64,000 nucleotides of DNA from Galeopterus variegatus. Taxonomy: Eukaryota. A program made the translations under genes and the position numbers. How positions within the stretch are numbered: the first letter of the stretch is position 1; each line of letters starts with the position of its first letter. Below the pieces are notes generated by a model. That model made no database searches and was not told where the DNA came from. It saw only the letters and a program-made list of their open reading frames with translations. This document shows positions 11,764 to 56,120 of the stretch, piece by piece. The stretch lies in NCBI RefSeq assembly GCF_000696425.1, contig NW_007726576.1:538522-602521 (forward strand), written 5' to 3'.

Positions 11764-11805
11764 TCACTGCAGCTGCACTCTGTATGCACCGATGAGCAGC
11801 TTCAC
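11764..11805 (-). CDS. MPHOSPH8: MPHOSPH8 terminal coding exon (CDS part, including stop)
   Basis: Acceptor CTCTCTCCACAG|GTG (AG at 11807-11806). Translation VKLLIGAYRVQLQ then TGA (11766-11764). The 3' UTR continues to lower coordinates. Confidence 0.85.
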   Translation of the reverse strand: MKLLIGAYRVQLQ

Positions 11806-11993
11806 CTGTGGAGAGAGGACATGCCTGTGTCATTGCAGAAATGTAACTCCCCTTTCTCACGAAGAGGAGGGAAAAACACCCATTGGCCAAGACTGTTTCT
11901 CTTATTTGGCGATATTTTCAATTTATCAATTTACATGGTTAGAGTTATATAAAAAGAACATTATTCTGAGTGCTTATAATCTGATTTTAGGTC

Positions 11994-12120
11994 CTTTTTT
12001 TTGAGACCGGCTGCACCGCGCTCAGCCAGTGAGCGCCGGCCATCCCTATATAGGATCCGAACCCGCGGCAGGAGCGCTCCCAGCACCGCACTCTCCCGAG
12101 TGCGCCGCGGGCTCGGCCCT
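11994..12120 (-). mobile_element. t-SINE, CTATATAGGG-class (in last intron of MPHOSPH8)
   Basis: rc of GGGCCGAGCCCGCGGCGCACTCGGGAGAGTGCGGTGCTGGGAGCGCTCCTGCCGCGGGTTCGGATCCTATATAGGGATGGCCGGCGCTCACTGGCTGAGCGCGGTGCAGCCGGTCTCAAAAAAAAGG. Flanking TTAGGT repeats. Confidence 0.8.
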
Positions 12121-12214
12121 TAGGTTATTTTTAATAATTGCATTATTAGGCTATTTTAGTCCAGCTTTCATTCTCACAGAGGGATTGGTGACTGGCCTAA
12201 AGACATATGAGGGG

Positions 12215-12300
12215 GGCCTTCAAAAAGTTCATGGAAAGATTTATATTATCTTTTAATTCTATTTTTCTACAACCTTTTTGAAGTACCCTCGTACATGTGG
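12215..12300. repeat. copy 3 of the short palindromic interspersed element
   Basis: CCTTCAAAAAGTTCATGGAAAGATTTATATTATCTTTTAATTCTATTTTTCTACAACCTTTTTGAAGTACCCTCGTAC. Confidence 0.45.
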
Positions 12301-12571
12301 CAACTCAACTAGGTACTGTAGAGAGGTGTTCTCACTTTAAATGTAGTCCCTCTCAGCACATTATTTATGTCTAATGATTCATGTTAGATTTAGACAGATG
12401 AGTGCACCTGGTGTCTCTACTGTAGGGAGCGCTCGTCTCTAGGATGGGCACTCAAACTTCAGAGACCAGGGAACACAATGACATACTTGAAAAGTTTTTT
12501 TTCTAATGATGATAAAGTAATCTGGGTAACGATTTGAGTAGAAACACTAACTATGAGAAATGCATTTTCAC

Positions 12572-12618
12572 CTTAGCGGAGGGTGCTTCAGACAACCTTA
12601 TAAAGAGTTTATTCGGAC
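12572..12618 (-). CDS. MPHOSPH8: MPHOSPH8 exon 13 (47 nt)
   Basis: Acceptor CTGCTGCAG|GT (AG at 12620-12619). With the carried A this reads S PNKLFIRLSEAPSAK. Donor AAG|GTGAAA (GT at 12571-12570). Enters in phase 1, leaves in phase 0. Confidence 0.82.
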
Positions 12619-13430
12619 CTGCAGCAGGGCTGAACGAGTAAACGAAATGACTGTCCTAAAGTGGAAAGAGAAAAAAAATAAAGTCAGTATTTTTCAGATA
12701 AACTTCTACATTTAGAAACAAAGTTTTTAAAATAGAGACCAGAAATCTTGAAGACTCCACTGGTGGTAAGCAGTATGAGCAATACGCTGGAATTTATTTT
12801 ACTTTTTTTGATTTCTCCCTTGATTTATTAAAAAGATAAAAGTGACAAAAAACAATATCCACACATATCTTTGGGATGAGGATGCACCCAACCATATATA
12901 CAGCACAAGTGTTAAGAATGCCCATACCCCATTAATTTTGCTTAATTCAGCCCAAGGAAAGAATTTTGATGGCAGCAAAAGAATTATGTACAAAGATTCT
13001 TCGAGAGCATGTTCTATGATGTTAATGAAGAATTTATAGAGCCACCAATAGATTAATTACACATTAAAACTAAGGATAAATATAACCAATGTTGTACAGT
13101 ACTGGGGTATTAGAAACATGAAAATTTCCTACGCTTCTTCCTTAAGCAACATTTTTAATTATAATGGTAGAAAAAGGCATAATATTTTATATCAGGCTGT
13201 ATATACCATAAGAATTTATATGCAGAATAATTGATTATAAGACATTATGATAAGCCTAACATAAGAAAGAAATGAACTTAACATTTAGATTGACAAAATT
13301 TAGGATAATTTTACTTTATGATTATGGGTATTAACATCACTCTCAACAACTGGTTTACTGGATCATTTACTGAATGATCATATTTTATTAAGACAAAGGA
13401 ATTTAAAATTAAGTCATCTGAAGAATGTAC

Positions 13431-13592
13431 TTTTCAGTCCTGAATGAACTACAGAAGATCTTACCAGAAAAACAGGAAGTTGAAATTTATCATTTAAAAC
13501 TACGGCTTGTACACTACATGGTCCACAAAGCCGAGCAATAACTTCTTTACCCAGAAAGTTTGTGTGGAAAATGAACAGCAGGATGCCAGAGC
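13431..13592 (-). CDS. MPHOSPH8: MPHOSPH8 exon 12
   Basis: Acceptor TTATTCAG|GC (AG at 13594-13593). Translation G SGILLFIFHTNFLGKEVIARLCGPCSVQAVVLNDKFQLPVFLVRSSVVHSGLK plus A. Donor A|GTACAT (GT at 13430-13429). 162 nt. Phase and total CDS length (2580 nt) require this weaker donor; an in-frame consensus CTG|GTAAGA at 13464-13463 is read through. The 3' boundary is therefore less certain than for the other exons. Confidence 0.7.
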
Positions 13593-15133: not shown

Positions 15134-15288
15134 CTTCTGGTACATTCTGTGGGGGTTTATAATTGAATTCTGTTGAAAAATCTGGCCCCTCACAGAGTCG
15201 GTGACATGCTATTGGAAAAACTGGCTCAAGGAGAGCGAGACGAGCTTCAAAATAATCCTTTATTGTCTCTTCTGCTACTCTTGAAAGT
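15134..15288 (-). CDS. MPHOSPH8: MPHOSPH8 exon 11
   Basis: Acceptor CTATTAG|A (AG at 15290-15289). Translation T LSRVAEETIKDYFEARLALLEPVFPIACHRLCEGPDFSTEFNYKPPQNVPE plus G. Donor G|GTAAGCC (GT at 15133-15132). 155 nt. Confidence 0.9.
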
Positions 15289-16049
15289 CTAATAGAAAAG
15301 GATAGTAAGAACTGTTAATATTAATGTTGAAAAGCACCACGAGCCCAGAATTGATTATACTGTCCAACACCAGCGAGGCCTTCCCAGATAAACCTTTTTA
15401 AAAAGGAACTGCAGCTCTACCCTCGCCCTGCTCCCCTGCTCTGCTTTTCTTTAGCATTCAGCATCTAACACTGTCTTACTGTTTATCTCCTTTCATGGAA
15501 CCAAAGCTCCAAGAGGGCAAGTCTGTCCCCATATTGCCATCTCCGTATCCCCAGACGGTGCCTGGCACAAAGACTGTGCTTAATACATATTTGTCTAATC
15601 AAAGAATGAATGAAAAATCAGAAATGAGAACCCCTCAGTCCTGGGCAAACAAGGAAGGCTGGGCACCCTTCCTTGCTGGCTTCTAGGACTACCTGCAGCT
15701 GTGACTGGCACTGTGTGCAACAGGCCTGGCCCAGGAGGCCACAGAAGTGACTGGCTATGTGAGGCTCCCAGCAAAGGAGGGAAAAATTTTCCTTATTTTC
15801 TGCTTAGAATGAAGATCCTGTGCCAAGAACTGAAGAAGCCATGCTGCAGGCATGAAGGTGGAAGTCATCCCGAGTATGGTGGGTCAGGAGGAGGTAAGAG
15901 CCGCTGCAGCCCTCGCTACATGAAAATAACTCTTATCGAGTGAGCTGCTGTGTGTGGAGTTCTGATGTGTTGCCAAAGGAACTCTTAAGCGATGAAAACA
16001 TATTAATTTACTTGTGTTATGAAGTGTGAACTTGCACTAAAATACGATT

Positions 16050-16628: not shown

Positions 16629-16783
16629 GTCTCTAAGTGGCTTTTCAGCAAGTCATACACAAGCACATTGTTGCACTGCTTTGCAAAATGCAGTGCGTTA
16701 TTTTGGTGCTTCGACAAAATATTGCAGTCAGCTCCACATTCAATTACAAGTCGTACAATGTCTGAATTTCCTCTTTTACAGGC
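16629..16783 (-). CDS. MPHOSPH8: MPHOSPH8 exon 10 (ankyrin repeats)
   Basis: Acceptor GATGTAG|GCC (AG at 16785-16784). Translation ACKRGNSDIVRLVIECGADCNILSKHQNNALHFAKQCNNVLVYDLLKSHLE plus AC. Donor AC|GTAAGTAC (GT at 16628-16627). 155 nt. Confidence 0.92.
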
Positions 16784-17445: not shown

Positions 17446-19846
17446 GTCTCACCACCCTGAGGCTATTAAACAGTGGATGGCTGAGAAGCAGGGCCAGGTG
17501 TTCCTACAGATACAGGTCACCTGGCCTGTGCTACTCAGGCCCCGGGTTCCACAGAGCAGGGACCTACAGCATGCTCGCTCATCCCTGGGCAGATGCTCAC
17601 ACACTGCCCTTCAAAGGGTGCTTACCCATGGCTCTCCCAGGATAATCCTGCCCTCAAGGGGCATTACTGGTTGTTACACCGGGAAGCAGATGCTAGTGTA
17701 CCTGGTATAGAGGGCAGGGACACTGCTGAACACCCGGTGGTGCTGGACAGGCCACAGTGTGACAGTGAGGGCAAGAAGCCCCGTTGGAACGACTAGATCC
17801 CAACAATGATGTTCCAGGGCAGTTTCTTGTACCCTTGCGCTCCGGTAATGACCAATTTTACATACTTTCTCCCGAGATGAAAAGGCTTTTATTTTGTTTC
17901 AACTTCTGAAAATCTTTCCCGTTTATTTCTTCTAAACCTCAATAAAACTAATACAATACACAAAATCCTTAAAGCAATTAAAATACTGCTTTTCAGCAAC
18001 AAGTACCTAAATAAGTAAAACAAATTACAGATATCACTAGTCTTATCTAACTTAGACACTAGTTACACAAGCTCTGAGTCTCTTCTCAAGGAAGAAACGA
18101 CCCACTCCCCGAGCACCCTGGCTCCCTCCCAGGCCCCTCTGTGCCCGCTGTGACTTGACACAGACGCCTCCTGCCCCCAGCCCTTGCTTGCCCTTCTGAG
18201 CCACCGCCTCCCCTCATCTTTCTCCTGCTTCTCTTTCCCACGCAGGCTCCTTCCGTCCTTGGCCTTCCCTCTTTCTCGGCCTATGGCTAGAGTCACTGTA
18301 CCCTAGGCTGCCGACCCCCAGATCTGAGTCTCCAGTCCACACCCTCCCCTGAGCTCAACCCCCTAAGTGAGATGCCTCCCGAGCATTCCAGCTCAAAGGC
18401 CACATCTGCACAGCAGAGCACCCAGCTCCCTGCTCAACCTGCTGCTACTCCTTACCTTAGAAACAAGGCGACTGAGCATCAGCTTGGTCGCCACATTTTG
18501 TGAGTTCCACCACCTAAGAAGCCATTGAATCTACCCACTTCTTTCCCTCTGTCACCAATCTAGGCACGGATGACTATAATTTCACTCTATTTTAAGAGCC
18601 TCCCTACACATCTGCAAAGTGCCCTTCTCGCCAGTCCATCCCCCTACTGTACACTAAGGAACATTCAAACGAACCACCCTATAAGCTGATTCTTTGTCCA
18701 GCCTAACCTCTTGGTGGCTCCCAACTGCCCTCAGGACAAGCTCCCGGTTCCTTAGCATGCTGTAGAGAGTTTCTGTGCGCCCCCCTTACGCTCCAGAGGT
18801 AACAAGTGTCTGCTGTTCAGAACGCACCTGTAACTCCTCGCTGAGAGGATGCTCGGAGGTGCCACCTCTGCTCTGAACATGTGGCAATAGCAGAAGCACA
18901 TAAAGGACATTAAAAAAATTTTAAAGTACATTTTAAAGATTCAAAGCTCAGGCTTCTGAACAAAATATTTCCATGAACCAGAAATGAGACAGAAGCATAA
19001 AGCAGTGATGACGGCTTAGACCTGAGTTTGCAGGAATTTGCAGGTCTGGGCCCTCAGAGTGACAGGGAAGAAGGGAGGACCCAGCGCCAGGCCCACGCAG
19101 AGCTGGGCCGCGCCCCTTTGCTTACCCAGGACAGCGGCTGGCAGCAGGAATTGCAGACAAATCCCTGCTGGGGGCAGTGGCTTACATAAAGGTGCATCCT
19201 GGGGGGAAGGTGGGAAGACAGAGCCATGTTACCCCCCGCCCCCCGCCCCATTGCAGCCGAGTGTCTGGATCTGCTGCATCCTAACGGCATCTTGACCCAG
19301 GAACCTGGAACTGCCACAGAGGAATGGGTGGCAAGGCCAGGGCCCCACAAGACAAATGTGAAACTGCTCAACAGGGAGGGGAAATAACAGGGTGCTGGGG
19401 GGGGGGCCTCCAACAACCTTCTCCTCAAAATGTATCTGCAAACCACAATTCCACAACACACACAGAAGTCAGAGTCTAAGGAGACACACGCACCACCATG
19501 AAATGGTAATGAGCACACCAACAGCACTCCGAGGTCTCTGTCCCACTCCAGCTCTGCTGATGCCCCCCTGGCCCCCCACCCCCAAGTGCATGTCCTTTCA
19601 GGACACAGCTCGCCACCTGTTACATCCACTCTCGGACTGGCCCTAGGTGCCCACCCAAGCGCTCCTTGGGCCTTGCTGCCCTGCCTCCCTGGTCTGCGGG
19701 TCGCTGGAGTCCAAGGACCATCTTGGAGCCCAAGGACCATCTTGCCCCACGCTGTGCCCAGTCCCCAGCACGGGGCAGCAGTGGCAGTGCCAACATGAAC
19801 ACCTGCTGAGTGACTGAAGAGACAGGTGACCTGTGGGAGGGTTTAC

Positions 19847-19933
19847 CTTCATCAATGCAGTTTCACCATTGCTCTGCTGGACATTCACAAAAGCTCCTGC
19901 TTCCAAAAGAATAGCCACTGTTGTTAGAAAGTT
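19847..19933 (-). CDS. MPHOSPH8: MPHOSPH8 exon 9 (ankyrin repeats)
   Basis: Acceptor CACTAG|AAC (AG at 19935-19934). Translation NFLTTVAILLEAGAFVNVQQSNGETALMK (29 codons). Donor AAG|GTAAAC (GT at 19846-19845). Confidence 0.92.
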
Positions 19934-20541
19934 CTAGTGAAAAAAAAAAAAAAGCAAATTTAATTGCAAAACTTCTTTAAAAGTAAGATTTTTTAGATGT
20001 TTTGAAATTTTTAGTCATCAGGAAAAACAGCAGATTCTATCCCAGTGGGATGCTGGCCACAGTGTTCACTTGTCCTCACTATGAGGCCTGCGGGAGCCCC
20101 CATGCCCCCACATATATAGCCCCACACTGTTTTGTCTCCAACTGCCGCCTGAGGGTTAGCCACTGGTTTCTACATAAAAGCCTCTGCACATAAATCCTTT
20201 AAAAAGATGATACATGAGAACATTTTAATTAAATTATTAACCAAAAGGAATACTAAGTTCGGCTGGAAAAGATTTTTAGATTATATAAGGTTGAAATCAA
20301 TATTAGCACTTTAATCAGAGGCTCTATTTAATAGAAAGTACTTCCAACTAGATAAAGCACATTTTAAAAATTTGATTACAAAGTAATACTGATAAAATAA
20401 ATCCATTACATGTCATAAATCAACATTATAAAGTAATGTGGCCCATATGACTGTTACATTTCACTACAGAAGCGTCTTCTCTGAGTCCACCAGTGGGAAT
20501 TCCTGCGGGACTCTCACACTGCAGCACATGGAGTCACAAAC

Positions 20542-20682
20542 CTTCTCAGCGGCATGAATGAGGGCAGTGGTCCCGTTCTTCTGCCGACCGTTCACTTTTG
20601 CTCCTTTTGTGATGAGGAGCCGCAGGAGGTCATCCTGCCCACCTGCTGCAGCAAGCATCACTAGTGTCATCCCACTGGAATC
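20542..20682 (-). CDS. MPHOSPH8: MPHOSPH8 exon 8 (ankyrin repeats)
   Basis: Acceptor CAACAAAG|GAT (AG at 20684-20683). Translation DSSGMTLVMLAAAGGQDDLLRLLITKGAKVNGRQKNGTTALIHAAEK (47 codons). Donor AAG|GTTTGT (GT at 20541-20540). Ankyrin consensus G-TALxxAA present. Confidence 0.93.
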
Positions 20683-22095: not shown

Positions 22096-22184
22096 CTCTT
22101 GATCTAGGTTATATTCTTCATTCGAATTAAGTGCAACCTTTACTGTAATATAATCCCCATTTTTCACAGCATCCCTTAACACAT
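22096..22184 (-). CDS. MPHOSPH8: MPHOSPH8 exon 7 (start of ankyrin-repeat region)
   Basis: Acceptor ATTTTAG|AT (AG at 22186-22185). Translation N VLRDAVKNGDYITVKVALNSNEEYNLDQE. Donor GAG|GTAAAA (GT at 22095-22094). 89 nt, ends in phase 0. Confidence 0.92.
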
Positions 22185-22265
22185 CTAAAATGAAAAGAAA
22201 AGATAAATTAGGTTTTATATATCTAGATTTGTGAAAGAGATTTCTATAATTCCGAAACTACTCAC

Positions 22266-22391
22266 TACTGGGAACTGCATCTGCTGTAACAAAATTTTCA
22301 TCTTCTCCATCAAGGTGCTTTTGAAAATCTTCTAATTTCATCCATTCCAACTGCAAATCCATGCCCAGACTCAAAATCTGTTGTCTACCAT
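22266..22391 (-). CDS. MPHOSPH8: MPHOSPH8 exon 6
   Basis: Acceptor GTTCCAG|AT (AG at 22393-22392). Translation D GRQQILSLGMDLQLEWMKLEDFQKHLDGEDENFVTADAVPS plus A. Donor A|GTGAGTAG (GT at 22265-22264). 126 nt. Confidence 0.9.
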
Positions 22392-25107: not shown

Positions 25108-26242
25108 TGTATTTGCTTTTTGTACGATGGTCTTAAATCCAGTCATCCTGTAAAACTTCAAAAATTTCTAACAGTTTATTTATAGATTCTTTTGGCTTTT
25201 CTACATAGATCATGCCACCTGACAATGAGGGTTTTTTTTATTTTTTTTGCTTCCTTTCCAATGCTTATACCCTTTTCCTTTGCCTTACTGTGCTGGGTAG
25301 GATCTTTGTAAATGTTGAATAAAAATGATGACAGAAGGCATCTTTGTATTGTTCGTGATTTCAAACAAATGTTCCTAATGTTTCACAGTCACAAAAGACG
25401 TTTGCCGTAGGTTTAATACTCTTCTATCAATCGAGAAAGGCCCCTTTATTGATCGTTTGTTAAGGTTTTTTTTTTTTTTTTTAAATCAAGAATACTGTTA
25501 AATCCACTTCTCCTTTACTCACTGGATTCCTAGGGAAAACCCATCTTGATCGTAAGCGATTATTTTTTTAAACAAGGCTAGATTCAATTTGTTAACGTTT
25601 TGAGATTTTAACATCTGAATTCATGAGTGAGCTTGGCCTGTTGTTCTCCTTTCTTACATAGTTATCTCGTTTTGGTATTGACGTTATAACTGTCTAAGAG
25701 AATAAGTAAGAGTTCTTTGTTTTTAGGAAGACTTTTTCAAGTTTGATATTTTTGCATATAAAACCATCTCAGCCTGGTGTTAAATCTGTGTGGCTGTTTT
25801 AGTTACTATTTCAGGTTCTTTAATAGTTACAAGCCTATTAAGGCTTTCTATTTTTCCTTGGGTCAGTTTGGTTGAATTATATTTTTCCAGGAATTTTTCC
25901 ATGTCATTCAGTTTTCAAATCTATTGGTAAGGAATTGCTCACAGCATTCTTTTACCTTTTTAATCCATGCACACGTCTCTTTTTTATCCAACATATTGTT
26001 TAAGTCTTCATTCTTTCACTCTTTTTAGAGGCTTGTCTATTTTATCAGTCTTTTCTAGGAACCAATGCTGGCTTTACTGATGCTCTCTACTCTATCTTAT
26101 TTGTTGTTTGGCATCCCAAAAGCAATGCTGCTATTTGGCATCTGCCCTCTGGGCAACCTTCTTTCTCCTCCTTGCCCACTAATCCTGGAAATTATCCTGA
26201 TTTTCTGCAAGCTCAGCCAGTGCATCCAAAAACACACGGCAT

Positions 26243-27462: not shown

Positions 27463-27720
27463 CCAAATTCTCATCCATCTGGCACATACTGTCTAAAACC
27501 TCCTGATCACCTTCTGCAGCAATGTATGCCCAAGTATCAGTTTCATCTCTTATATTTCTCCTTTCTTTAAGTGACTGCTTATTTTCCTTGGTTTTGTGAT
27601 CTTCTGTGGTTTTACAATCCAGTGGTATTTCTTCTCTTTTCCGATTATTCTCAGGAACATCATTTTTTTCTTCTGGAGTTAATTTAAATAAATCAAACGC
27701 ATTTCCGATTTCCTTAAATG
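27463..27720 (-). CDS. MPHOSPH8: MPHOSPH8 exon 5
   Basis: Acceptor TTTTTTACTAG|CA (AG at 27722-27721). With the carried A this gives T FKEIGNAFDLFKLTPEEKNDVPENNRKREEIPLDCKTTEDHKTKENKQSLKERRNIRDETDTWAYIAAEGDQEVLDSMCQMDENL plus G. Donor G|GTGAGT (GT at 27462-27461). 258 nt. Confidence 0.9.
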
Positions 27721-27969
27721 CTAGTAAAAAAACATTAAAATTGATGGCAAGTATGAGTCACAAATTTCTCTTGTAATCAAAAGAAAATCTGGGTTAGTGT
27801 TAAAGAAATAGGTATCACCTTAATTTTTACTAGTATTTTGCACGATCAGATTTACCATCGAAGCCACAACGTCTGGTCTTTCAACTGGTCTTTTCTGTTG
27901 CTGCTACTCAACATTTAGAAAGGATGTTCACAGTGAATGGCTACTCATCAGGTGTTCTGAATCACTCAC

Positions 27970-28190
27970 CTGTAGTTGTGGCAAAGGCCTGCTGAGGATG
28001 GTGGGCCTCAGAATGAGACCCACCTGGTCATGCCACCCATCTCCTACTGCTAGATACACCAGACTGTCAACCACTGCACACTGTAGTTGTGGCAAAGGCC
28101 TGCTGAGGATGGTGGGCCTCAGAATGATACCCACCTGGTCATGCCACCCATCTCCTACTGCTAGATACACCAGACTGTCAACCACTGCAC
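27970..28190. repeat. tandem duplication, 2 x 111 bp (MPHOSPH8 intron 4)
   Basis: CTGTAGTTGTGGCAAAGGCCTGCTGAGGATGGTGGGCCTCAGAATGA(G/T)ACCCACCTGGTCATGCCACCCATCTCCTACTGCTAGATACACCAGACTGTCAACCACTGCAC twice, about 98 percent identical. Confidence 0.85.
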
Positions 28191-29379
28191 CCTTAGTTTG
28201 TATAGATGTGATTTCTGGTGGTGAGGGGGAGAAATAGCAGGTGCCTGAGCACCAACAATGCACCTGGTAAAACTGTACCTGATGCCACCAGCTTTTAAGT
28301 GAATAATAGTGGGAAGAAAACTGGCAAAGCTCCAGACTTGTCATAGGAAATAATCCAAAAAAGAAAACGCTATTAGGAAGAATTGTATTATAAACTCCAG
28401 GTACATAGTAGACAGATTTTATTAGCAAGGGATATTGAAAACCGGACTCCCAGTGAGTACCATTATAAATGGGACAAACAGTAGTTCCATTTAAGGCATA
28501 CTGGGTCACAGTAAAAGTGTGCCTTCAATTGACATACGAGACGCCAGGAATAAGAAAAAGTTAACGAACCAGGTCCAATTTTGCAATATTTTGAATCACT
28601 CTTTGAAGAATAGCAGGGGTTTAAAATGTTTGTATTATTTTGAACAGATATGCTCTTTCACTTACAGTAACTTACGCACGACCCACTGGAACAGCAACTG
28701 TTCCTTCCCAGCTTCAACTACCTGCTTCTACCTTCAAGCCTCGCTCAGCTGAGAAATAAAATCTACTATCAGTATTACTTCAAATACATACAGCTTTTGG
28801 GAGAAAACCCAGGGGAAATTATCCACCTCTTAGAAACACTGCTTCCAAGAGAATGTGTGTTCCAAGTACTTTTGGTACATAAACTATTTATCTACTGGAG
28901 CTTATTCAAACACCATACGGTGATTTTTGAAATGAAGCAGTTGTTTCAGTACTGACATGTGTTATGGATTCTCAATTATGGTATATCTTGAAGTGATCCA
29001 AAATGTGTATTCAACATTATACTTGTGTTGGTACAAATGACACAGAGTAAAATACAATGAATATATTAAGCAAGTCTGTTTTATTTAGCATGCACTATAA
29101 AAAAGACACATTTACTTTTCTGCCATAACTAATTTCTTGTCTAATTCTAACTTACTCCATCAGCATACTGAAAAGGAGGAAAAACTAATTACATAATTAC
29201 ATAAGTTGTTATATAATAAATTTACATAACTGGTTAAACAAAGGCTCTAAATTCCCCAGTGAATAAAATTTTCCAGTTCTATGACATAGCAGGTTAGAAA
29301 AGACTGTCTTATAGTAAATTAATTTCTTTGCATAAAAGATGGTACTGTAAATGGTTAAAATGTTAGTATTTACACTCAC

Positions 29380-29479
29380 TCTTTAATCCCTTTGGCTCTT
29401 TTCGGCCTTTTTCTTCCTTCTCTGAATCATGCCTTTTCTGATATTTTTCTTTGGGTTCATTTTTTTTGGTCTCTTTCTC
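29380..29479 (-). CDS. MPHOSPH8: MPHOSPH8 exon 4
   Basis: Acceptor TTTTTCAG|GAG (AG at 29481-29480). Translation EKETKKNEPKEKYQKRHDSEKEEKGRKEPKGLK plus 1 nt. Donor A|GTGAGT (GT at 29379-29378). 100 nt, ends in phase 1. Confidence 0.9.
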
Positions 29480-30739
29480 CTGAAAAAGACATATGTAAGA
29501 CCCTGAACGAGAATGGATAAAAGGCTGGTATTGTCTATTTGAAAACTGGAAAACACCGGTTCCTGGTGTCAATGACTGCCTTTATAAACTGTGGCACATG
29601 GCCAGAGATCATTAAGTTTTTTCGCATAAACTGCTTCCTCAATCAAGGTTATCCTTCAATCACATGATAATTTCTAAAACATCAAATCCAATTTAATATA
29701 AAAAATAATCTCCCCCCAAATCTCACCTATAGTCTTACTGATCACACACGACTATTTTTATTTCTCCATGCTCCCCCTTCTGAACTTGTCACTTTGCATA
29801 CATAATTTTTAAAAATTCATTTTCTTTATTTACACTGCATAGATATTTTTACATGGCAGTGTTCATATGTATGTATGGTATTCTTCTCCACCCCATTTTC
29901 TAAACTTTCCTGGTTTTGCTACAATGATGTCATAATTAATATTTCAATGGCTATAACAGTCCCCAGGTTGCCACATCAATATTTTCTTAACCATCTCCCC
30001 CATGGCTAGAGGGTTAGACTGTCATCAGCTGTTCACTACTGAAGATAATACTGCCAAATCCATCTTTGTATACACAACTTTTTTCATCCTTTTAAAATGG
30101 TTTACTTAAGAAAAATTCCCAAAACTGGGAATAATGGATGAAAAAAAAATTATCTTTTCTTATGGTCTGGTCCTTGATAAACAATGCATATAAGAATACT
30201 TTCATAATTTGAAAAATATTTCCATTTTGAAAAAACACATACCAGTGTTTTTATAATAATGAGAGAAACTATTAAATATGCTTTTGTAAGAATTAAAAGA
30301 CTTGTAATGTTAATGCATTTTGTATAATATTAAGTAAAAAGTGGTTTATTCTTAAGACAATGGAGGGAACATACCAAGAACAATGTGAAAACCTAATAAA
30401 ATATGCTGATGAAGCAATAAGCCTGAGTACACAACGCTGCAGATCACCTGAGTAACCCTAAAAGGACATGCTGACTTTTGCACATAAATTAGCCCTCAAT
30501 TTTCTAGTTGTAGTCAGTGTAAAAGGCAACCAGCTGCAGGCAGAGAGAAGCTGGTAGTCCCCTGGCTGAGGAGCTCAGCCTTTACAGCTGTCCACGCTTA
30601 GCCACACTATTCAGCACCCCCCTGATGATGCAAACACTGTCAGTTTGACCGTTTCCTTTTCATCGCTTGTGACACTTGTGGCCCACTCAGAACAGCACTA
30701 GCCCGCCGCACCCTGCGAGGCTGCCCCCGCGGCCCTTAC

Positions 30740-31591
30740 CTCCTCCGTGCAGCCACCGGACCTGAGCCCGAGGCCCCTCTCTTCCCCGCCCGGTCGCCAG
30801 CCCTTCTGCGGCGTCTGGGCAGACACAGGTGTCGGCTTATCTACCTCGGGGGTGTTTCCGCCTCTGTCTTGACCCCTTTGCTTTTTAGGCACAGTTTTCC
30901 TCTCTAAGAAAGAGTTCTTGTTTCCCAGCTTCCTGCCCTCCTTGGGGTCCTCGGGCTTCCTCGGCGCCTTCTTCTTCCTCTTGGCTCTGAGGTGCGCAGG
31001 CTCCTCCGCACCCGCGCCCGCCGGCGGCTCCTCAGCTGCGCGGTCCTCGCGGGCCTCCTGCCCGGCTCGCTCTTCTGCGCTTTGAACTTTCTGTTGCTCT
31101 TCTCGGATATCAGAGTGTAAGTCTTCACTGTCATCTTCTTGAAAAGGGGAATCATTAAGCACACTTGATTCAGATTCCAACTGAGAGTCAACGCATTTCT
31201 CTTTTTTTGTTTTTCTGTTTTCTTTGGGATCTTCTCTTTTAATCTTTAAATCTCTTATTTCACCCTTTTTAACTTTCTTTAATTCCTTACTTTCTTTTAT
31301 TTCATCTTTCTTGGGCTTTTTGGATTCCTTTAATTCTTCTTTGGCTTCCAAAATTCTTTTCTTTGTCCTTAGATCAAAAACTAAGCTTTCGGAGGTGCCT
31401 TCCAGGTCTGGTTTGGACTTATCTTTTGGCTTCCCAGTCTTTGCTTTTTTCTTTTTCAGATCATCTGGGCTTTTCTCTTCTCTATGCCTCAATTTTTTCT
31501 TTTTCTTCTTTGGAGAAGTATCTTCTTTTGTCTCACTTTGCTGATCACTATCAGAGTTTGCCTCAAATATGTCATTATTTAAGGATAGTCT
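30740..31591 (-). CDS. MPHOSPH8: MPHOSPH8 exon 3: large K/E/S-rich low-complexity exon (852 nt)
   Basis: Acceptor TATAG|AGA (AG at 31593-31592). Translation RLSLNNDIFEANSDSDQQSETKEDTSPKKKKKKLRHREEKSPDDLKKKKAKTGKPKDKSKPDLEGTSESLVFDLRTKKRILEAKEELKESKKPKKDEIKESKELKKVKKGEIRDLKIKREDPKENRKTKKEK...KTVPKKQRGQDRGG...PVSAQTPQKGWRPGGEERGLGLRSGGCTEE. Donor GAG|GTAAGG (GT at 30739-30738). 284 codons in phase 0, same frame as the 264-aa track ORF 30698..31492. Near-identical to the MPP8 disordered region as recalled. Confidence 0.9.
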
Positions 31592-37913: not shown

Positions 37914-38083
37914 TCTTTTTTTTTTTTTTAAAAGATGACCGGTAAGGGGATCTCAACCCTTGGCTTGGTGTTGTCAGCACCACGCTCAGCCAGTGAGCAA
38001 ACCGGCCATCCCTATATAGGATCCGAACCCGTGGCCTTGGTGTTATCAGCACTGCACTCTACCGAGTGAGCCACGGGCCGGCC
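37914..38083 (-). mobile_element. t-SINE dimer, young: perfect 17-bp TSD
   Basis: rc of GGCCGGCCCGTGGCTCACTCGGTAGAGTGCAGTGCTGATAACACCAAGGCCACGGGTTCGGATCCTATATAGGGATGGCCGGTTTGCTCACTGGCTGAGCGTGGTGCTGACAACACCAAGCCAAGGGTTGAGATCCCCTTACCGGTCATCTTTTAAAAAAA. Direct repeat TCTGAACTCACACTATA at 37896-37913 and 38084-38100. Confidence 0.92.
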
Positions 38084-38593: not shown

Positions 38594-39014
38594 TTTTTTT
38601 TTTTTTTTTAAAGATGACCGGTAAGGGGATCTTAACCCTTGACTTGGTGCCCTTTTGTCTTTTTTACTGACCGGTAACGGGATTGCAACCCTCGGTGTCG
38701 CACCGGCACCGCGCTCAGCCAGTGAGCGGGAACCGGTCTCCACATGGGATCCGAACCCTCGGCCGGCCCAAATTTTTTTTTTGTCCTTTTCGAGACCGGC
38801 CGCACTGCGCTCAGCCAGTGAGCGGGAACCGGTCTCCACATGGGATCCGAACCCTCGGCCGGCCCAAATTTTTTTTTTGTCCTTTTCGAGACCGGCCGCA
38901 CTGCGCTCAGCCAGTGAGCTCACTGGCCATCCCTATATAGGATCCGAACCCACAGCGGGAGCGCTGCTGCGCTCCCAGTGCTGCACTCTCCCGAGTGCGC
39001 TATGGGCTCGGCCC
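38594..39014 (-). mobile_element. t-SINE pile-up: at least 3 head-to-tail elements with an internally duplicated ~110-bp unit
   Basis: Same-orientation array. It comprises a dimer 3' unit (38594-38653), a 2-unit element lacking the box-A region (38654-38770), a 110-bp monomer-like copy (38771-38880) and a CTATATAGGG-class element (38881-39014). The last two share an identical 55-bp 3' end including the tail AAATTTTTTTTTTTGTCCTTTTCGAGACCGGCCGCACTGCGCTCAGCCAGTGAGC. Outer TSD ATTTTATAA(C/T)TTTTT. Confidence 0.85.
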
Positions 39015-45753: not shown

Positions 45754-45909
45754 CTGAATATCCTTCTTGATTGCTTTAGCTTTGTTCTCTGCCACTTTCT
45801 TTCTAAATTCCAGAAGAACTTCTTTACAGTCCTCCAGATGAACCTCAGGCTCCCAGGTGTCATCATCTGATGTATATCCTTTCCATCGAACTTTGTAAAG
45901 GATTTTACC
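45754..45909 (-). CDS. MPHOSPH8: MPHOSPH8 exon 2: chromodomain
   Basis: Acceptor cAG|GGT (AG at 45911-45910). 156 nt in phase 0: GKILYKVRWKGYTSDDDTWEPEVHLEDCKEVLLEFRKKVAENKAKAIKKDIQ, a canonical chromo domain. Donor CAG|GTATCA (GT at 45753-45752). Confidence 0.93.
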
Positions 45910-46860: not shown

Positions 46861-47240
46861 TATACATGAAAAGTTATTTAACACTGCTCTATACATGTGC
46901 ACTTACAGAATTATCATTAACTATTTACATTTTTTCTTTACAAAATAACCTGTTATGTGCTCATTTTCATCACTGCTATTGAACACTGTACTGAAGTTCC
47001 AGCCACAGCAATTAGATAAGAAAAAGAAATAAAAGACATCCAGTTTGAAAAGGAAGAAGCACAACTGTTGAGTATTCACAGATGACATGATCCTGCACAT
47101 AGAAAATCCCAAAGAATTCCACAAGAAAGCTACTTGAGCTAATAAATGAATTCAACAAAGATGTAGGGTACAAAACAAACACACAGAAATCGGTTGTGTT
47201 TCTAAACACCTGCAATGAACAATCTGACAAGAAAATTAAG

Positions 47241-47430
47241 GGCCGGCCCGGTGGCGCACTGGAGAGTGTGCCGCTTGGGAGCGTGGCGGCGCTCCCGCCA
47301 AGGGTTCGGATCCCATGTGGAGACCGGTTCCCGCTCGCTGGCTGAGTGTGGTGCGGGTGCGGCACCGAGGGTTGCGATCCCATTGCCAGCCATGAAAAAA
47401 AAGACAAAAAGGAAAAAAAAAAAAAAGAAA
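47241..47430 (+). mobile_element. t-SINE trimer inserted in L1, TSD (A)GAAAATTAAG
   Basis: GGGCCGGCCCGGTGGCGCACTGGAGAGTGTGCCGCTTGGGAGCGTGGCGGCGCTCCCGCCAAGGGTTCGGATCCCATGTGGAGACCGGTTCCCGCTCGCTGGCTGAGTGTGGTGCGGGTGCGGCACCGAGGGTTGCGATCCCATTGCCAGCCATGAAAAAAAAGAC... Direct repeat GAAAATTAAG on both sides, interrupting L1 ORF2-homologous sequence. Confidence 0.9.
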
Positions 47431-47821
47431 ATTAAGCATTTCCATTTACAATAGCATCTAAAAGAATAAAATACCTAGGAATAAATTTAACCAAGGAGGT
47501 GGAAGACATAAACTAAAAACTATAAAACACTGCTAAAAGAAATTAAATAAATGGAAAGATATCCTGTGTTCTTAGGTAGGAAGACTTAATGTTGTTAATA
47601 TGTCAACACCATCCAAAGTGATCTACAGATTCAATGCAATCCCTATCGAAATTCCAATAGCCTTATTTCCAGAAATAGAAAAGCCAATCCTTAAATTCAT
47701 ATGGAATTGCAAGAGGCCCTGAATAGCCAAAACAATCTTGAAAAAGAACAAAGCTGGAAGAGTCAAACTTCCTGATTTCAAAACTTACTACAAAGCTGCA
47801 GTAATTAAAACATTGTGGTAC

Positions 47822-48002
47822 TGGGCCGGTCCGTGGCTCACTCGGGAGAGTGTGGTGCTGATAACACCAAGGCCACAGGTTCGGATCCCATATAGGGATG
47901 GCCAGTTCGCTCACTGGGTGAGCGTGGTGCTGACAAACACCAAGTCAAGGGTTAAGATCCCCACACCGGTCATCTTTAAAAAACAACAACAACAACAAAA
48001 AA
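47822..48002 (+). mobile_element. t-SINE dimer inserted in L1, TSD GTGTGGTACTG
   Basis: GGGCCGGTCCGTGGCTCACTCGGGAGAGTGTGGTGCTGATAACACCAAGGCCACAGGTTCGGATCCCATATAGGGATGGCCAGTTCGCTCACTGGGTGAGCGTGGTGCTGACAAACACCAAGTCAAGGGTTAAGATCCCCACACCGGTCATCTTTAAAAAA(CAA)n. Flanked by (T/A)GTGTGGTACTG repeats. Confidence 0.9.
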
Positions 48003-48453
48003 ACAGTGTGGTACTGAAAAACACCGATATAGAGAGTCCAGAGATAAACCCATACATCTAAGGCCAATTGATTTTTGAAAATGGTTCGAAGTCCACTCAA
48101 TAGGGAAACAAACTGTGCTGGGACAACCGGACTTCCAACATGCAAACAAACAAAGTTGGACCCCAACTTCATACCATGTAAAAATAATTGACTAAAAAAG
48201 GATCAAAGAGTTAAATTTAAGAGCTAAACCCATAAAATTCTTAAAAGAAAACACTGGAGTAAATCTTTAGACTTTGGATGGCTATGGATTCTTGGATGTG
48301 ATATCAAAAGCACAAACAAAAGAAAAAAAAAAGATAAATTGTACTTTATCAAAATTAAAAACGTATGTGCATCAAAGGACGTTACCAACAAAGTAAACAG
48401 ATAACCCACAGAATGGGAGAAAATATTTGCACATTAAAAATATCTGATAAAGC

Positions 48454-48524
48454 CGGTCCGGTACGGGGGCAACACTGAGGGTTGCGATCCGTTGCCGGAC
48501 ACGGAAAAAGACAAAAAAAAAAAA
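48454..48524 (+). mobile_element. 5'-truncated t-SINE (third unit of trimer only), with TSD
   Basis: GCCGGTCCGGTACGGGGGCAACACTGAGGGTTGCGATCCGTTGCCGGACACGGAAAAAGAC + A14. Direct repeat ATCTGATAAAG at 48443-48453 and 48525-48535. Confidence 0.8.
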
Positions 48525-48535
48525 AATCTGATAAA

Positions 48536-48620
48536 GGGTTAAAGCACAGCCTTATAATAACAAGGTCAAGGGTTCACCTCCCTGTGTGGTAGGCCAGCCA
48601 CCAAAACAAAACAAAAGAAC
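48536..48620 (+). mobile_element. t-SINE monomer, 5'-truncated
   Basis: GGTTAAAGCACAGCCTTATAATAACAAGGTCAAGGGTTCACCTCCCTGTGTGGTAGGCCAGCCACC with a (CAAAA)n-like tail. Confidence 0.6.
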
Positions 48621-48629
48621 AAAAAGAGC

Positions 48630-48712
48630 AGGTTGGCTGTTTAGCTCAGTTGGTTCTAACTGAGAACCTTAGAACACCAAGGTCAGCCACCTTCAAAAAA
48701 AACAAAAAACAA
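48630..48712 (+). mobile_element. t-SINE monomer (degenerate)
   Basis: GCAGGTTGGCTGTTTAGCTCAGTTGGTTCTAACTGAGAACCTTAGAACACCAAGGTCAGCCACC with an A-rich tail. Confidence 0.6.
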
Positions 48713-50762
48713 GTATCTAATAAGGGATTAATATCCAGAATATATGAACAACTACAATTCACCAACAAGACAGACAATCGAATTCAAAAGTGGGCAAAGG
48801 ACTTGAACAGACATTTCTTCAGAGAAGATACACAAACTGCCAATAAGCACATGAAAAGATGCTCAACATCATTACTCCTTAGGGAAATGCAAATCAAATC
48901 ACAAAATGAGATACCACTCTTCGCCTGTTACATGGCTATTAAAAAAACGCCAATGGAAAACAATAACAGTTGGTAACGATGTGGAGAAACTGGAACCTTC
49001 TTACATTGGTGCTAGGAATGTAAAATGGCACAGCTACTGTGGAAAACTGTCAGGCAGTTCCTCAAAAAGTTAAACATAAAATCAACCTATGACCCAGCAA
49101 TTCCACACGGAGGTATATACCCCCAAAGAATTGAAAACACAGACTCAAACAGGTATCTGTATACCAATGTTCACTGCAGCATTATTCACAATAGCCAAAA
49201 GGTGAAAGCAACCCAAGTGCCCATAAGTGGATAAACCAATAAAATGTGATATATACATACAATGAAATATTATTCAGCCTTGAAAAGAAAGAAAATCCTT
49301 ACGCATGTCACAACATAGATGAAACTTAAAAGTATTACGCTAAGTGAAATAAGCCAGACACAAAACACATATTTATGATTCCACTTAGACGAGGTGCCTA
49401 GAACAGGCAAATTTACTGAGACAAAGTAGATTAGAGGTTATCAGGGACTGGGGGGAGAGGTGAAATGGGGAGTTACTGTTTCATGGTTACAAAGTCTGTG
49501 CAATGATTTTAAAAAAGGTTTTGGATATGGTAATGGTTGCACAACATTGCGAATGTAATTAATGCCACTGAATTTTACATTTAAAAATGATTAAAATGGC
49601 TAATTTTATGATATATGTATAATTATAATAAAAATATCCTTTACCTATTGTGTCTTTTGCCCATTTCATTGCTCATTTATGAGACTTTTTCTTTTTCATA
49701 CTTATGGCTATTAAATCTTTGTCATATATATTCCAAATTTTTGCTTAAATCCCAACAAGCAAGAACATATCTGCAACATGGTTGTCTGCATGAACTGCAG
49801 AGCACCATTCCAGCTATACACTTAACATCTGCCTGATTTTATTCATACTTCTACCATGGCAATAAACCTTCCCAGCTGAGTGCCAAGAACTGCTGCCTCC
49901 CACTTTACCCTTCAGTCATACCTACACCGCCCTCCAATCATTCTGCAGTGTGTAGAATGACCAAGTATCAATATTTAGTAGTATTAGGAACAAAGAAATA
50001 ATGGAAAATCTTAAAATCTTAACTTTTAAAGATACTCCTGAAAATCCTTAAAATTTAAAAATAACACTCGTACAGTCATGCACCCCACAACAACTCTTCA
50101 GTCAATGATGAAACACATATACAATGGTGGTCCCATAAGATTATAATGGAGCTGGAGGTGTGTAGTGGGCTATACCACCATTTAGGTTTGTGAAAGTACA
50201 CTCCATGATGTTCACATAAATATGAAATCACCTAAGGACGTGTTTATCAGAAAGTCATTAAGCAACACAAAACTGTAGTTTAAGAGGACATCAATACAGT
50301 TTTACGGCTCAGCTACATTAATTGGGTCAGGGATCAGTTGATTATATCAGTTAAGAATAAATGCATATTCTTTTTAGCAAAACTGTGTACAAAAGGAAAA
50401 CTATCATGTACAACTTTGTAAGAGCTTCTACGACGGTATAGTTTAAACCGAAGAAATTAAACAAAGGTGAGACAGCATAGTTGTTTTCTTAAACAACTAT
50501 GCTTCTTAGCCTGAATGAATGCGGGAAGAAAGAAAAAGAAATCTTAGTCGATAATATGCAGTATTGCCTGAAAGAGAGTAATATGCTTGGTCTTGGTAGA
50601 AACATCACATGAAGAGTTATATGTTTGTAGGAGAGTGTAGGAATATGCTAATTTCATCAATAACAGGTCACGAGAACAAATGACCCTTGTTTGTATGTGT
50701 TTATAAAAATAGTGGTAAATCTGTCATTCAATACACTGCTTTTAAAATAAACACTATTTTGT

Positions 50763-50870: not shown

Positions 50871-50874
<4 letters not shown>

Positions 50875-51706: not shown

Positions 51707-52199
51707 CTCAAGGCCAACAAGTCTGAGTGCATTATGAATACAAAATGTTTAGGAAAAAGGTGAAAGTAGATTAAGGATTTCAATGGATTTCTATTAGCTT
51801 GGGGTTTTTTCTAAAACCTGCTTAATGGAACAACTTAAGCAGTTTTCCACCGTACACAAAGGTTACAGATTATTATCCTTTCTAGAAGTGTGTTAATAAT
51901 AGAAGTAAAAATATCTGGTCTGTTTTAGCACCACTTTAAGATCAACAAGAATCACATAAGAAACAATCAATATTCAATGAAAAACAATACATGAATATAT
52001 GTCAGTTAAAGTCAAAAGTTCTTTTTAAGTATCACTGGAAACAAATCTTTGTCATGCAGATACAAATTTACACATTCCTTCCTAAAGGATCTCATAGGAA
52101 CTAAACCTTAGTGTATTCCCTTAAATTAAAGGACCATATAATTTAGGAAAAAGCCAAGCAAGACAAAAATAATTCATAGATAAAATGTTCTTTTTAAAA

Positions 52200-54160
52200 C
52201 AGAGGAAACAGAAAACAGAAGAGATGACAGATTTAAACCCAAATATTAACAGCAATGGCAGCAAACTAAAAAACACATACAAACAAACAAAAACCAGCAA
52301 TGGCAACAAATGTAAATAGATCAGATATTTCAGTTCTAAAACAAGATTATCAGACTAGATTAAAAACCAAAGCCAAAACAAACAAACAAACAAAAAGTTA
52401 ACTTTACCAGGAAGATTTAATGATTCCAAATCAAAACTAAAAAAAAAAAAAAAAAAAAAAAAAAGCGAAAACATGGTTAGCTCCATTGCTTAGAGCATGG
52501 TGCTGATAACACCAAGGTTCAGGGTTCCATCCCCCGAAAAAAGCAAAAATTATGTAATTACAGAAAGACTAATTTCCAACCAAAATGGGAGATTTGAACA
52601 CCTTTCCCCAGTAAAACTGATAGAAAATGCAGCCAAAAGAAAAAAAAAGAAGGAAAGGATACAGACTATCTGAACAGCACAATTAGCAAACCTGACCTAT
52701 TTGACCAGGCACTAAACAACTGTGGAACATACATTTTCCAGTGTACTTTGAAACACTAAAAATAAAAGTGACAGCCGCATTTTTAATTTGCTTTTAACTT
52801 TCAGAGGAAAAATGTATAAGTGCGTTTTGCTCAGCTTAAGAATGATCCTGTAGCCACTAAGGCAGTTAAGCACATAAAGCTTAATAAGCAAGTGTGGGAA
52901 CTTGCAACACGGTCAAAATTAGTTTAAAAAATGTTTTGTTTATCTTAAAGAAAAATATAGTCAGTTAAACATAAAATAATAATAGTTTAAACAATAATCA
53001 TGAGTGATTTAGAGTCACCAGATGCTTGCTTCTACTTTTGCTTCACAGATATGTTGTTTTTTGCAGATTTTGAGACTGGGGTGGCCTCAACCATGTAGAT
53101 CATCTGATAGCCAGACAAGCTGACACCAAGAACCAAAACAGATCAAGATCAGGGAAGATGCTGAAACATGCACAAGAGCCAACCAACCAGAGATGTCCAT
53201 AACCTATTCACAAGCCCTAACTCCCTACCTTAACTTTTGCTTTTGAAAACCCATGACTGAAAGCCAACATGGAGTTCTGGTTTAAAGTGACAGCTTCTCG
53301 TTCTCTTTGCTTGGCCGTGCAATAAAGTCTGCACTTTCTTCACTGCAAATCTCAGTGTTCACTGATGGGCTTAGCTGAGTATGAGGCAGGTGGACCTCCC
53401 TTGTTTGGCAACAAAAATGACCACTGCTGGACCATAAAGCATGTTTCAACAAATTTCAGACTACAACAATGTAGAGACTATTCTCTGACCAAAAAGCAAT
53501 TAAACTAGAAATCATTTTTAAAAAGATAAATAAAATATTCCCAAATGTTTGGAAATGAATATACTTGTATAAAAATTCATGGAAATTGGAAAATATTTTT
53601 ATCTGAACGATAACAAACACATTACATAACACAACTTATGAGCTGCAGCTAAACTAAGATTAGAGGGTAGTCTTAAAGGCATATAATTTGAAGGAAAATA
53701 AAAGGCTGAAATACAATGAGCTAAGGCCAGTAAATTAAGGGACAAAGATAATAAAGATAAAGCAGAAATTAATGAAATAAAAAAATAACCGTATAAATAA
53801 GAAAACCAACAAAACTTGGTTCTTAAAATCAACAAAAGTACTAAACCTTGGGTAGAACAATGAAGAAAAACAGAGAAGGCACAAATAATCTCACTTCATA
53901 TCAGACATTCAAAGATCATTAAGAGGACATCACGAAGAACCTTACACCTATAAATTTAAAAATGTACCTAAAATGTGCACATCCTTAGAAAATATAACTT
54001 TTTAAAACATCGGAATAAGCCTATAACTATAAAAGATAACAGTTTCTAATTTAAAAACTTTTCCAAAAGTAAATTTGAGATGGCATCATGGTCAAATTCT
54101 ACCAGACATTCACAAGAAAATCCCTGAGAACTAGAATTTGAACCCAACTTCCATCACTAA
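52200..54160 (+). mobile_element. LINE-1 fragment (ORF2 5' half), in MPHOSPH8 intron 1
   Basis: Recognisable L1 ORF2 segments, e.g. GGGAGATTTGAACACCTTTCCCCAGTAAAACTGATAGAAAATGCAGCCAAAAG, CTCTGACCAAAAAGCAATTAAACTAGAAATCA, GCAGAAATTAATGAAATAAAAAAATAACCGTATAAATAAGAAAACCAACAAAACTTGGTTCTTAAAATCAACAAAAGTACTAAACC and CAGACATTCAAAGATCATTAAGAGGA. Boundaries are approximate. Confidence 0.6.
52465..52548 (+). mobile_element. t-SINE monomer (degenerate) adjacent to an A26 tract
   Basis: GCGAAAACATGGTTAGCTCCATTGCTTAGAGCATGGTGCTGATAACACCAAGGTTCAGGGTTCCATCCCCCGAAAAAAGC. Confidence 0.6.
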
Positions 54161-55099
54161 AGTCTAACTCTCCTTTACTGACTTACACATGTAAGTTTCT
54201 TAGTTTCATCCACTTCAGACTAAAATATGAAGCTTTAGATACCGTGCCTACAATTCTTTGAGACCGGCAAAATCAAATACTGACCGAATGAATGGCTGAA
54301 TCATCTTAACTTTCTAAATATCTTCTATGTGCCAAGCACTGTGTTAAATGCCGGCAATATAAAACAGTCTAAGATTGACTTCTCTCACCTCAGGTGCTTA
54401 CAATATATTTGGGGAAATTACACTTAAAAAAATTCTATCTTTACTGTACTGCAACTAACAACAATATTAATGACACTGGACTTCGATTACTTAACTCCCC
54501 TGGACAGGAGAACTTTACAGTATCAGCAACTATGTATGTTTGAATTAATCTCTATACAGTCCAGATCTCACAAAGCATCTGGCACATGGTAGCTGCTGAA
54601 TGAATGGACAATAAAATTAACACAGGCAGCATACATGACAAATGAGAAATAATAGATAATGAAAAGAATACAACACAGAGAACGACCACTGCATGAGACC
54701 TTTGGTCACCTCACCCCATCTTCTAAAACAGATTTTCCTATTGTCCACGATTTCCCGCTTTTCCCTCCCCTAACCTCCAGCCCACAACTCATTCGCTCAT
54801 TTAATAATCTGGTACTAAGAAGTCACTGCATGCCAGGCACTGGACTAAGTACCAGTAATGCAAAAATTAATAAAAATCACATCCCCTGGAGTAAAGGAGC
54901 CCACAATCTAGTGGGAGAGACGAACGTAACGGACGATACTGCCTTAAACGCCCTACAGAAGTCTACAGTACGTGGAATAAAGCAGAGATGAGAAAGCACT
55001 CTGCAGGGATCAGGATCAACAACTACTCTCACAGAGAAATGGGCCCAGAGGCTTTGAAAGACTTAGTAGGATTTCACCAGAAGAGACGGAAGAGAACAG

Positions 55100-56120
55100 G
55101 GCAGACGGGAGAACGGTTAGCGCCGAGGCGCGGCGTGACGACGAACCTCACGTGTGGCCGCGCGGCTACAATCATCTAACGCGCAGGGGAGAGACGGACA
55201 ACGGGAATTCCGCAAGATTTCAGAGCAGAGAACTGACCACGGTGTCGGGAAACACCGTCAGTGACGGCCGCGGAAGTCCTGCACAGCTGCCTGCACGCTC
55301 GCGCCATCCTCACACGCACGCCGCACACTGCTTCGTCCCTTCTGCCGAAGGGTCCTCTCTAACTTCTGGACGTGTCCTCCACAGACGCCGACCTAGGAGT
55401 CCACTGGGAAGCATCGTCCCGCCTCTCCCGAGACCCGCGCCAACGGTCGCGTCCACAATCGCGGGCGTTCCCAGCTCGGCCCTCCCCTCCCGCCCCCCCG
55501 CTCCAGGACCCCCGCGGACCCCCGCGCTTCACGTCCAGGACCTTCGCCGCCGCACACACGCCCTCGCCGGAAAACCCACGTACCCCCTCAGTCTTCACGT
55601 CCAGGATCTTCTCCACCTCGAATACGTTCTCCTCGTCCTCCTCGCTGTCCCTCACGGCCTCCGCTCCTTTTGCGGCTGCATCCTTTCGCCCCGATTCCTC
55701 TTCGGCTTCGGGCAACTCATCATTGCCGTCGCCACCTGACACAAGAACTGCGGTCACACTCGTTGCCTCCGCAACGGGAGCCACTGCCGCCATCGTAGGA
55801 GCTCCGCAAACTGCCAAAAAAAGCAGCTGCGACACACACTACGGCGGCGTGACCGGGCTGGGAGGGATACCGGCCAATGGCGGGCCCGAGATCGTGGAGT
55901 GACACGCACAGGAACCAATCATGTAAAGGCTGGCACGGCGGAGCCTACGGGAAGCGGGTGGGCGGGCCCCAGGACGCCTGGGGCGGAAGAACGTCGTCTG
56001 GGGGCGGGTGGAAGGGGTCGCGGGGTGGCGGGGCTGCCGGTCGCTCTGGAGAAGGGAGGAGAGCCCGGGAAGTCCTGGAGGGGCGGAGCGGGGCTCAGGC
56101 GCGCAGGGCGGAATGACAGG
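55100..56120 (-). promoter_or_regulatory. MPHOSPH8: CpG island / putative MPHOSPH8 core promoter and 5' UTR
   Basis: About 1 kb of very high GC with dense CpG dinucleotides, in contrast to the AT-rich flanks. It contains the exon-1 ATG. The TSS cannot be fixed from sequence alone but should lie within about 55800-56000. Confidence 0.6.
55584..55793 (-). CDS. MPHOSPH8: MPHOSPH8 exon 1 (coding part): acidic N-terminus
   Basis: Minus-strand ATG at 55793-55791. Translation MAAVAPVAEATSVTAVLVSGGDGNDELPEAEEESGRKDAAAKGAEAVRDSEEDEENVFEVEKILDVKTEG (70 codons), ending at donor GTACGTGGG (GT at 55583-55582). Lies inside a CpG island. The EDxxVFEVEKILDxKTEG motif matches the MPP8 N-terminus just before the chromodomain. 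Confidence 0.88.

Follow-up and report, generated by a model that had tools for sequence, protein, structure and literature searches.

Does the stretch of the colugo genome analysed here, the 64,000 nt at positions 538,522 to 602,521 of contig NW_007726576.1 of the Sunda colugo, Galeopterus variegatus (referred to below as the window, whose coordinates we use throughout), hold a complete and working MPHOSPH8 gene, and how long is the M-phase phosphoprotein 8 (MPP8) that it encodes? An earlier note on this DNA had rebuilt the 14-exon mammalian gene from the raw sequence alone and had arrived at a product one codon short. Based on the evidence set out below, we conclude with high confidence that the interval is the single-copy, functional MPHOSPH8 of the colugo, whose 14 coding exons give an 860-residue MPP8 from a CpG-island promoter.

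The exons were located by tblastn with a human MPP8 sequence, a probe used solely for this step, and all conclusions on the identity and structure of MPHOSPH8 were drawn from database sequences. Thirteen collinear matches on the minus strand, running from 55775 to 11767, were obtained, one of them covering two exons; twelve had E-values between 1e-10 and 3e-96, and the thirteenth, for the 16-residue last exon, 0.008. As every junction was read directly, the coding region could be followed through 14 exons from an ATG at 55793 to a TGA ending at 11764, across 13 introns that all run from GT to AG, with consistent phases and not a single internal stop, and the coding sequence (CDS) amounts to 2,583 nt, that is, 860 codons plus the TGA. 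Exact-sequence look-up revealed that the 860-residue product agrees at every position with XP_008567315.1, 'PREDICTED: M-phase phosphoprotein 8 [Galeopterus variegatus]', leaving no difference at the protein level from the NCBI annotation of G_variegatus-3.0.2. The per-exon E-values together with this exact agreement between the spliced product and a RefSeq protein exclude chance similarity. The annotation of Galeopterus genes by NCBI is backed by colugo RNA-seq, with libraries SAMN02736899 and SAMN02736900 (PMC4980104). The window is free of N runs, and may for this reason stem from another assembly than the draft with 20-kb contigs of PMC4980104.

The earlier note had thus been right about a complete MPHOSPH8 orthologue with 14 coding exons on the minus strand, about both end points, which are exactly as it gave them, and about the AG acceptors, GT donors and phase. 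Exon 1 (55584-55793, on the minus strand like all the others; 210 nt, residues 1-70) encodes an acidic N-terminus followed by the first part of the chromodomain, to which the cage residue F58 belongs, and ends at a donor reading gtacgt; its start codon, 55793-55791, is the first in-frame ATG past an upstream stop and has a good Kozak context, acgATGG. Across intron 1, which measures 9,674 nt, exon 2 (45754-45909; 156 nt, residues 71-122) encodes the chromodomain body with W79, Y82, T88 and E90, and includes the first of the two peptides that had been quoted, GKILYKVRWKGYTSDDDTWEPE, at 45909-45844. Intron 2 is 14,162 nt long, in keeping, like intron 1, with the earlier estimates of about 9.7 and 14.2 kb, and is followed by exon 3 (30740-31591; residues 123-406), a low-complexity linker rich in lysine and glutamate whose length of 852 nt and composition (18% K, 14% E, 8% S) are those of the K/E/S-rich exon described before. 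Exon 4 (29380-29479; 100 nt) opens at a tandem acceptor, CAG/GAG, and is followed by exon 5 (27463-27720; 258 nt) and exon 6 (22266-22391; 126 nt), which ends at a tandem donor, GTAGTGAGT, and is separated by an intron of just 81 nt from exon 7 (22096-22184; 89 nt). The ankyrin repeats, as had been stated, occupy exons 7-10: the Pfam match begins in exon 7, continues through exon 8 (20542-20682; 141 nt), whose acceptor has a weak polypyrimidine tract (aaccaacaaag) and an AG conserved in the colugo Cynocephalus, and exon 9 (19847-19933; 87 nt), and the final repeat falls in exon 10 (16629-16783; 155 nt). By the domain limits given in PMC7618375, the PINIT-like beta-sandwich begins in exon 11 (15134-15288; 155 nt) and includes exon 12 (13465-13592; 128 nt). 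The doubt raised earlier over the junctions of exon 12 is unfounded, as this exon matches its Cynocephalus counterpart at 100% identity, and no other in-frame site competes with it. Exon 13 (12572-12655; 84 nt) and exon 14 (11764-11805; 42 nt including the TGA at 11766-11764) complete the series, the latter encoding, at 11805-11767, the second quoted peptide, VKLLIGAYRVQLQ, followed by the stop.

When the 860-residue protein was used as a query against a large protein collection, all 120 named matches among the best ones listed were MPP8/MPHOSPH8 proteins, and these came from across mammals with 72-85% full-length identity, mostly at 94-100% coverage; the best match among those listed was that of Cynocephalus volans (98% identity, 100% coverage). 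The window protein therefore has full-length, collinear similarity with the MPP8 group, whose members are its best matches. We compared the window with the C. volans locus on CM050033.1 (L001) and its protein XP_062959348.1. Collinearity extends over the whole window, with 93-98% identity at the DNA level, and all 14 exons map one-to-one with equal lengths and the same AG and GT dinucleotides; joined and translated, the Cynocephalus exons give exactly XP_062959348.1. The two colugo proteins differ by 17 substitutions (98% identity, ungapped), none of which lies at an exon boundary, and the coding sequences by 40 nucleotides. Synonymous divergence (dS) was 0.044, similar to the 2-7% seen in the aligned blocks, which are mostly non-coding, and nonsynonymous divergence (dN) was 0.008. 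The resulting dN/dS of 0.19 points to purifying selection on MPHOSPH8. Both the exon-intron structure and the gene neighbourhood are conserved against C. volans, in which PARP4 lies upstream of MPHOSPH8 as it does in the window. Judged by these substitutions and by its intact open reading frame (ORF), MPHOSPH8 is a functional gene under purifying selection and not a pseudogene.

The domain content agrees with this identity. Pfam Chromo matches residues 58-108 (E 2.5e-15), which means that the chromodomain begins in exon 1 and not in exon 2; the earlier note had placed it in exon 2, correctly so for its body, while the start, with F58, belongs to exon 1. In the PDB, the chromodomain of human MPP8 (3QO2, 3LWE) matches with an E-value of about 3e-33. 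Colugo F58, W79, Y82, T88 and E90 are identical to F59, W80, Y83, T89 and E91 of the human database sequence, in which we take F59, W80 and Y83 to form the cage, and the DDD acidic stretch of the chromodomain is likewise identical to human. Human residue numbers were anchored on Thr89 and Glu91, which are named in the text of PMC7618375; this source also places the human chromodomain at residues 59-118 and describes the trimethyl-lysine cage as made up of three aromatic side chains and an acidic one. A chromodomain with a methyl-lysine cage is hence present in the colugo sequence, and would be expected to bind its ligand. Further downstream, Pfam ankyrin families match residues 572-707, and residues 544-860 can be aligned over the full length of the human MPP8 C-terminal domain construct in 8QFB chain B with very few substitutions (E 4e-203), so that both the ankyrin repeats and the C-terminal domain are represented. 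For the human protein, the same source reports five ankyrin repeats at 548-728, a PINIT-like beta-sandwich at 741-860, and the sufficiency of residues 528-860 for HUSH assembly through TASOR (PMC7618375).

Set against human MPP8 (UniProt Q99549; 3QO2, 3LWE, 8QFB), the colugo protein has the same order of chromodomain, K/E-rich linker, five ankyrin repeats and PINIT-like domain. Overall identity is about 84-85%, rising to near identity in the chromodomain and the C-terminal domain, with the cage residues conserved, whereas divergence and small indels are seen in the first 50 residues and in part of the linker. Human isoform 2 (867 residues) uses an alternative last exon, Alu-derived in appearance, which has no counterpart in the colugo gene. 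The canonical human protein has 860 residues, equal to the colugo product. Taken together, the window gene shows all features that define the MPP8 group and are accessible from sequence.

The length of the product deserves separate consideration, because the earlier note had counted 2,580 nt and 859 residues, whereas the RefSeq junctions give 2,583 nt and 860 residues plus the stop. Two places in the gene could account for a protein shorter by one residue. At the exon 4 acceptor, tttttCAG/GAG/AAA (29476-29481, minus strand), splicing may occur at 29479 or, in frame, at 29476, and use of the distal AG drops one codon; at the exon 6 donor, CCCA/GTA/GTGAGT (22264-22269, minus strand), the alternatives are 22269 and 22266, again in frame, and the proximal GT drops one codon. 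A main product of 859 residues made through either site is thus compatible with the window sequence, in which both tandem sites are present, and the exon 6 type of variant has an annotated precedent in isoform X2 of Nycticebus coucang, which lacks exactly the serine that this variant would remove. Nonetheless, both colugo RefSeq models have 860 residues, nearly all orthologues also support this length, and at residue 407, with which exon 4 opens, an E or D is kept by 106 of the 108 full-length orthologues compared. In NAGNAG pairs GAG is chosen as acceptor least often, and as a donor GTGAGT outperforms GTAGTG; these preferences, too, disfavour the sites that shorten the protein by one codon. 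We therefore regard 859 residues as a very unlikely length for the main product, while an 859-residue form as a minor isoform of colugo MPP8 is plausible.

A further possibility, that the locus is a non-functional duplicate or an 'MPP8-like' paralogue instead of the orthologue, is raised by a second Galeopterus RefSeq protein, XP_008561901.1, named 'MPP8-like', which has 754 residues, lies on a 29-kb contig and clusters with the window protein at 90% identity. This entry is accounted for by the window gene itself: it is identical to the product of exons 3-14, and its 16-residue N-terminus, MCKNSLSVKRNAHGMP, is encoded at 32469-32516 on the minus strand, inside intron 2. These two features, together with the 29-kb length of the contig, indicate that XP_008561901.1 most probably represents this very locus, as a truncated model on a redundant scaffold, and is not a paralogue. 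Moreover, the window gene is full length and intact, with the dN/dS given above, a CpG-island promoter and PARP4 synteny retained, and the chance that it is anything other than the orthologue seems to us extremely slim. That the exon-like matches are a processed pseudogene or chance ORFs is refuted outright, with next to no probability left to it and no supporting point found, by the thirteen introns with canonical splice sites that separate them, by exon E-values down to 3e-96 and by the exact identity of the spliced product to a RefSeq protein.

We return to the functional, single-copy MPHOSPH8 with an 860-residue product. Three considerations weigh against this reading as formulated: the junctions, untranslated regions and promoter rest on homology and on the RNA-seq-supported NCBI model; the biochemistry of colugo MPP8 is argued from the human and mouse proteins; and the two tandem splice sites could yield minor 859-residue isoforms. 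A separate observation concerns the protein clusters. A 51-residue 'hypothetical protein' of the bacterium Cereibacter changlensis (PZX46887.1) shares the 90%-identity cluster with the colugo MPP8 proteins; considered as a relative of MPP8, it has no visible similarity to the colugo protein, and its membership is probably a clustering artefact.

At the 5' end of the gene, a CpG island of 1.7 kb (54801-56500; GC content 0.57, CpG observed/expected 0.92, 128 CpGs) covers exon 1 and the presumed promoter. At the 3' end, the first candidate polyadenylation hexamers, AATAAA, lie between 11093 and 11361 on the minus strand, at 11356, 11101 and 11093, which is 407, 662 and 670 nt past the stop, and are motif matches only. 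The last coding exon of PARP4 is found in the window at 62850-62655, also on the minus strand and ending in NIPWAFEEIKKASEWVRRTEAQYPSVCQRLELGKDWDSATKQLLGSQPIDTASPLYRVLNYSQG before its stop codon, 6.9 kb upstream of MPHOSPH8, so that the window spans the PARP4-MPHOSPH8 intergenic region and can be identified as the colugo PARP4-MPHOSPH8 region. The neighbour on this side in C. volans is a gene of 1,758 residues with the PARP4 domain set (BRCT, PARP, VIT, VWA), which ends 6.7 kb before the MPHOSPH8 start, and the first 10 kb downstream of MPHOSPH8 contain no called gene. PARP4 and MPHOSPH8, adjacent in colugos and in mouse, are not known to be adjacent in human. Within intron 9, the block at 18000-20000 has a GC content of 0.53-0.58 and contains a 262-residue stop-free stretch on the minus strand right after exon 9. 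Its CpG observed/expected ratio of 0.24-0.37 and a neutral-level divergence of 5% from Cynocephalus argue against a CpG island or a hidden exon, and this block is probably just GC-rich intron.

The introns and flanks of the gene are rich in t-SINEs, a dermopteran family attributed to Piskurek et al. 2003 and to Schmitz & Zischler 2003 in PMC3531059. A similarity census of the window gave 32 t-SINE segments, five of them in intron 1 (432 nt) and nine in intron 2 (993 nt), as both monomers and dimers of tRNA-like units, and some of the dimers have A-rich tails and target-site duplications. The tRNA-like matches returned by Rfam at gathering thresholds and by ARAGORN are units of this family; the Rfam search at these thresholds gave three such matches, all of them t-SINE units, and no intronic snoRNA or miRNA. 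One copy, at 37931-38083 on the minus strand, is flanked by a perfect 15-bp target-site duplication, ATAGTGTGAGTTCAG, and another lies at 47823-47978 on the plus strand. About 14 of the 32 segments are missing at the orthologous C. volans site and were therefore inserted after the split of the two colugo genera. One of these Galeopterus-lineage-specific copies (56466-56620, plus strand) is nested in an older L1, 670-830 nt before the ATG and at the border of the CpG island.

L1 sequences were sought by tblastn with L1 ORF1p and ORF2p as queries, and one match was cross-checked in the PDB, where it was confirmed against LINE-1 ORF2p (E 3e-49). Intron 1 holds an ORF2 remnant of about 2.4 kb (46958-49369, plus strand and hence antisense to the gene; ORF2 residues 661-1264), and intron 5 a decayed one (25522-26073, minus strand; residues 362-571). 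Two further decayed remnants, both on the plus strand and shared with Cynocephalus, lie in the 5' flank at 56313-58466 (residues 426-942) and 61974-62132 (residues 953-1005). No similarity to these ORF1p and ORF2p queries was detected by tblastn in intron 2, even at E<=5. The earlier description of introns 1 and 2 as loaded with both L1 and t-SINE insertions is accordingly borne out for the t-SINEs, which are numerous in both, and overstated for L1, which contributes a single ORF2-derived stretch in intron 1 and none in intron 2. When the three plus-strand frames of intron 1 were compared with Pfam, with stops written as X, nothing was found despite the L1 ORF2 remnant, the method being insensitive to frame-shifted relics.

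Intron 1 of Cynocephalus contains an L1 of its own, of 4.3 kb (L001 14522-18846) and in the sense of the gene, which has no counterpart at the matching position in the window, about 51290. Its ORF2 matches human ORF2p over residues 1-1275 in three segments at 61-73% identity and is near-complete, which indicates that this L1 is young. We also observed three near-perfect two-copy tandem duplications in the window, at 1687-1904, 27963-28198 and 38706-38919, with units of 108, 111 and 96 nt and 95-99% identity between copies; that at 38706-38919 is made of t-SINE sequence. For the duplication in intron 4, an overlap at this place in the Cynocephalus alignment suggests that the copy number differs between the colugos.

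Considering the antisense L1 remnant in intron 1, the t-SINE at the promoter edge and the young sense L1 in Cynocephalus intron 1, it is conceivable that insertions near its regulatory regions make MPHOSPH8 a target of its own HUSH complex, in an autoregulatory loop that differs between the colugo genera. We regard this idea as highly speculative and as having little chance of being correct.

RefSeq already lists both gene and protein, and MPHOSPH8 of the colugo is an ordinary gene with nothing unusual about it; MPP8 biology is well described in human and mouse, and the significance of these results beyond quality control is small. For the organism, they suggest the following course of events. 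Transcription of the minus strand from the CpG-island promoter and splicing of the 14 coding exons would yield the 2,583-nt CDS and the 860-residue MPP8. Extrapolating from what is described for MPP8 of human and mouse, the N-terminal chromodomain would read H3K9me3 and trimethyl-lysine peptides of the ARK[S/T] type through its aromatic and acidic cage, and the ankyrin repeats and PINIT-like C-terminal domain would bind TASOR. MPP8, TASOR and Periphilin would together form HUSH, which would recruit SETDB1 and MORC2. As the domains that have been characterised in human MPP8 are conserved (PMC7618375, PMC7532188), we infer that colugo MPP8 is a subunit of HUSH and, as such, would take part in the silencing of transcribed intronless retroelements such as young L1s.

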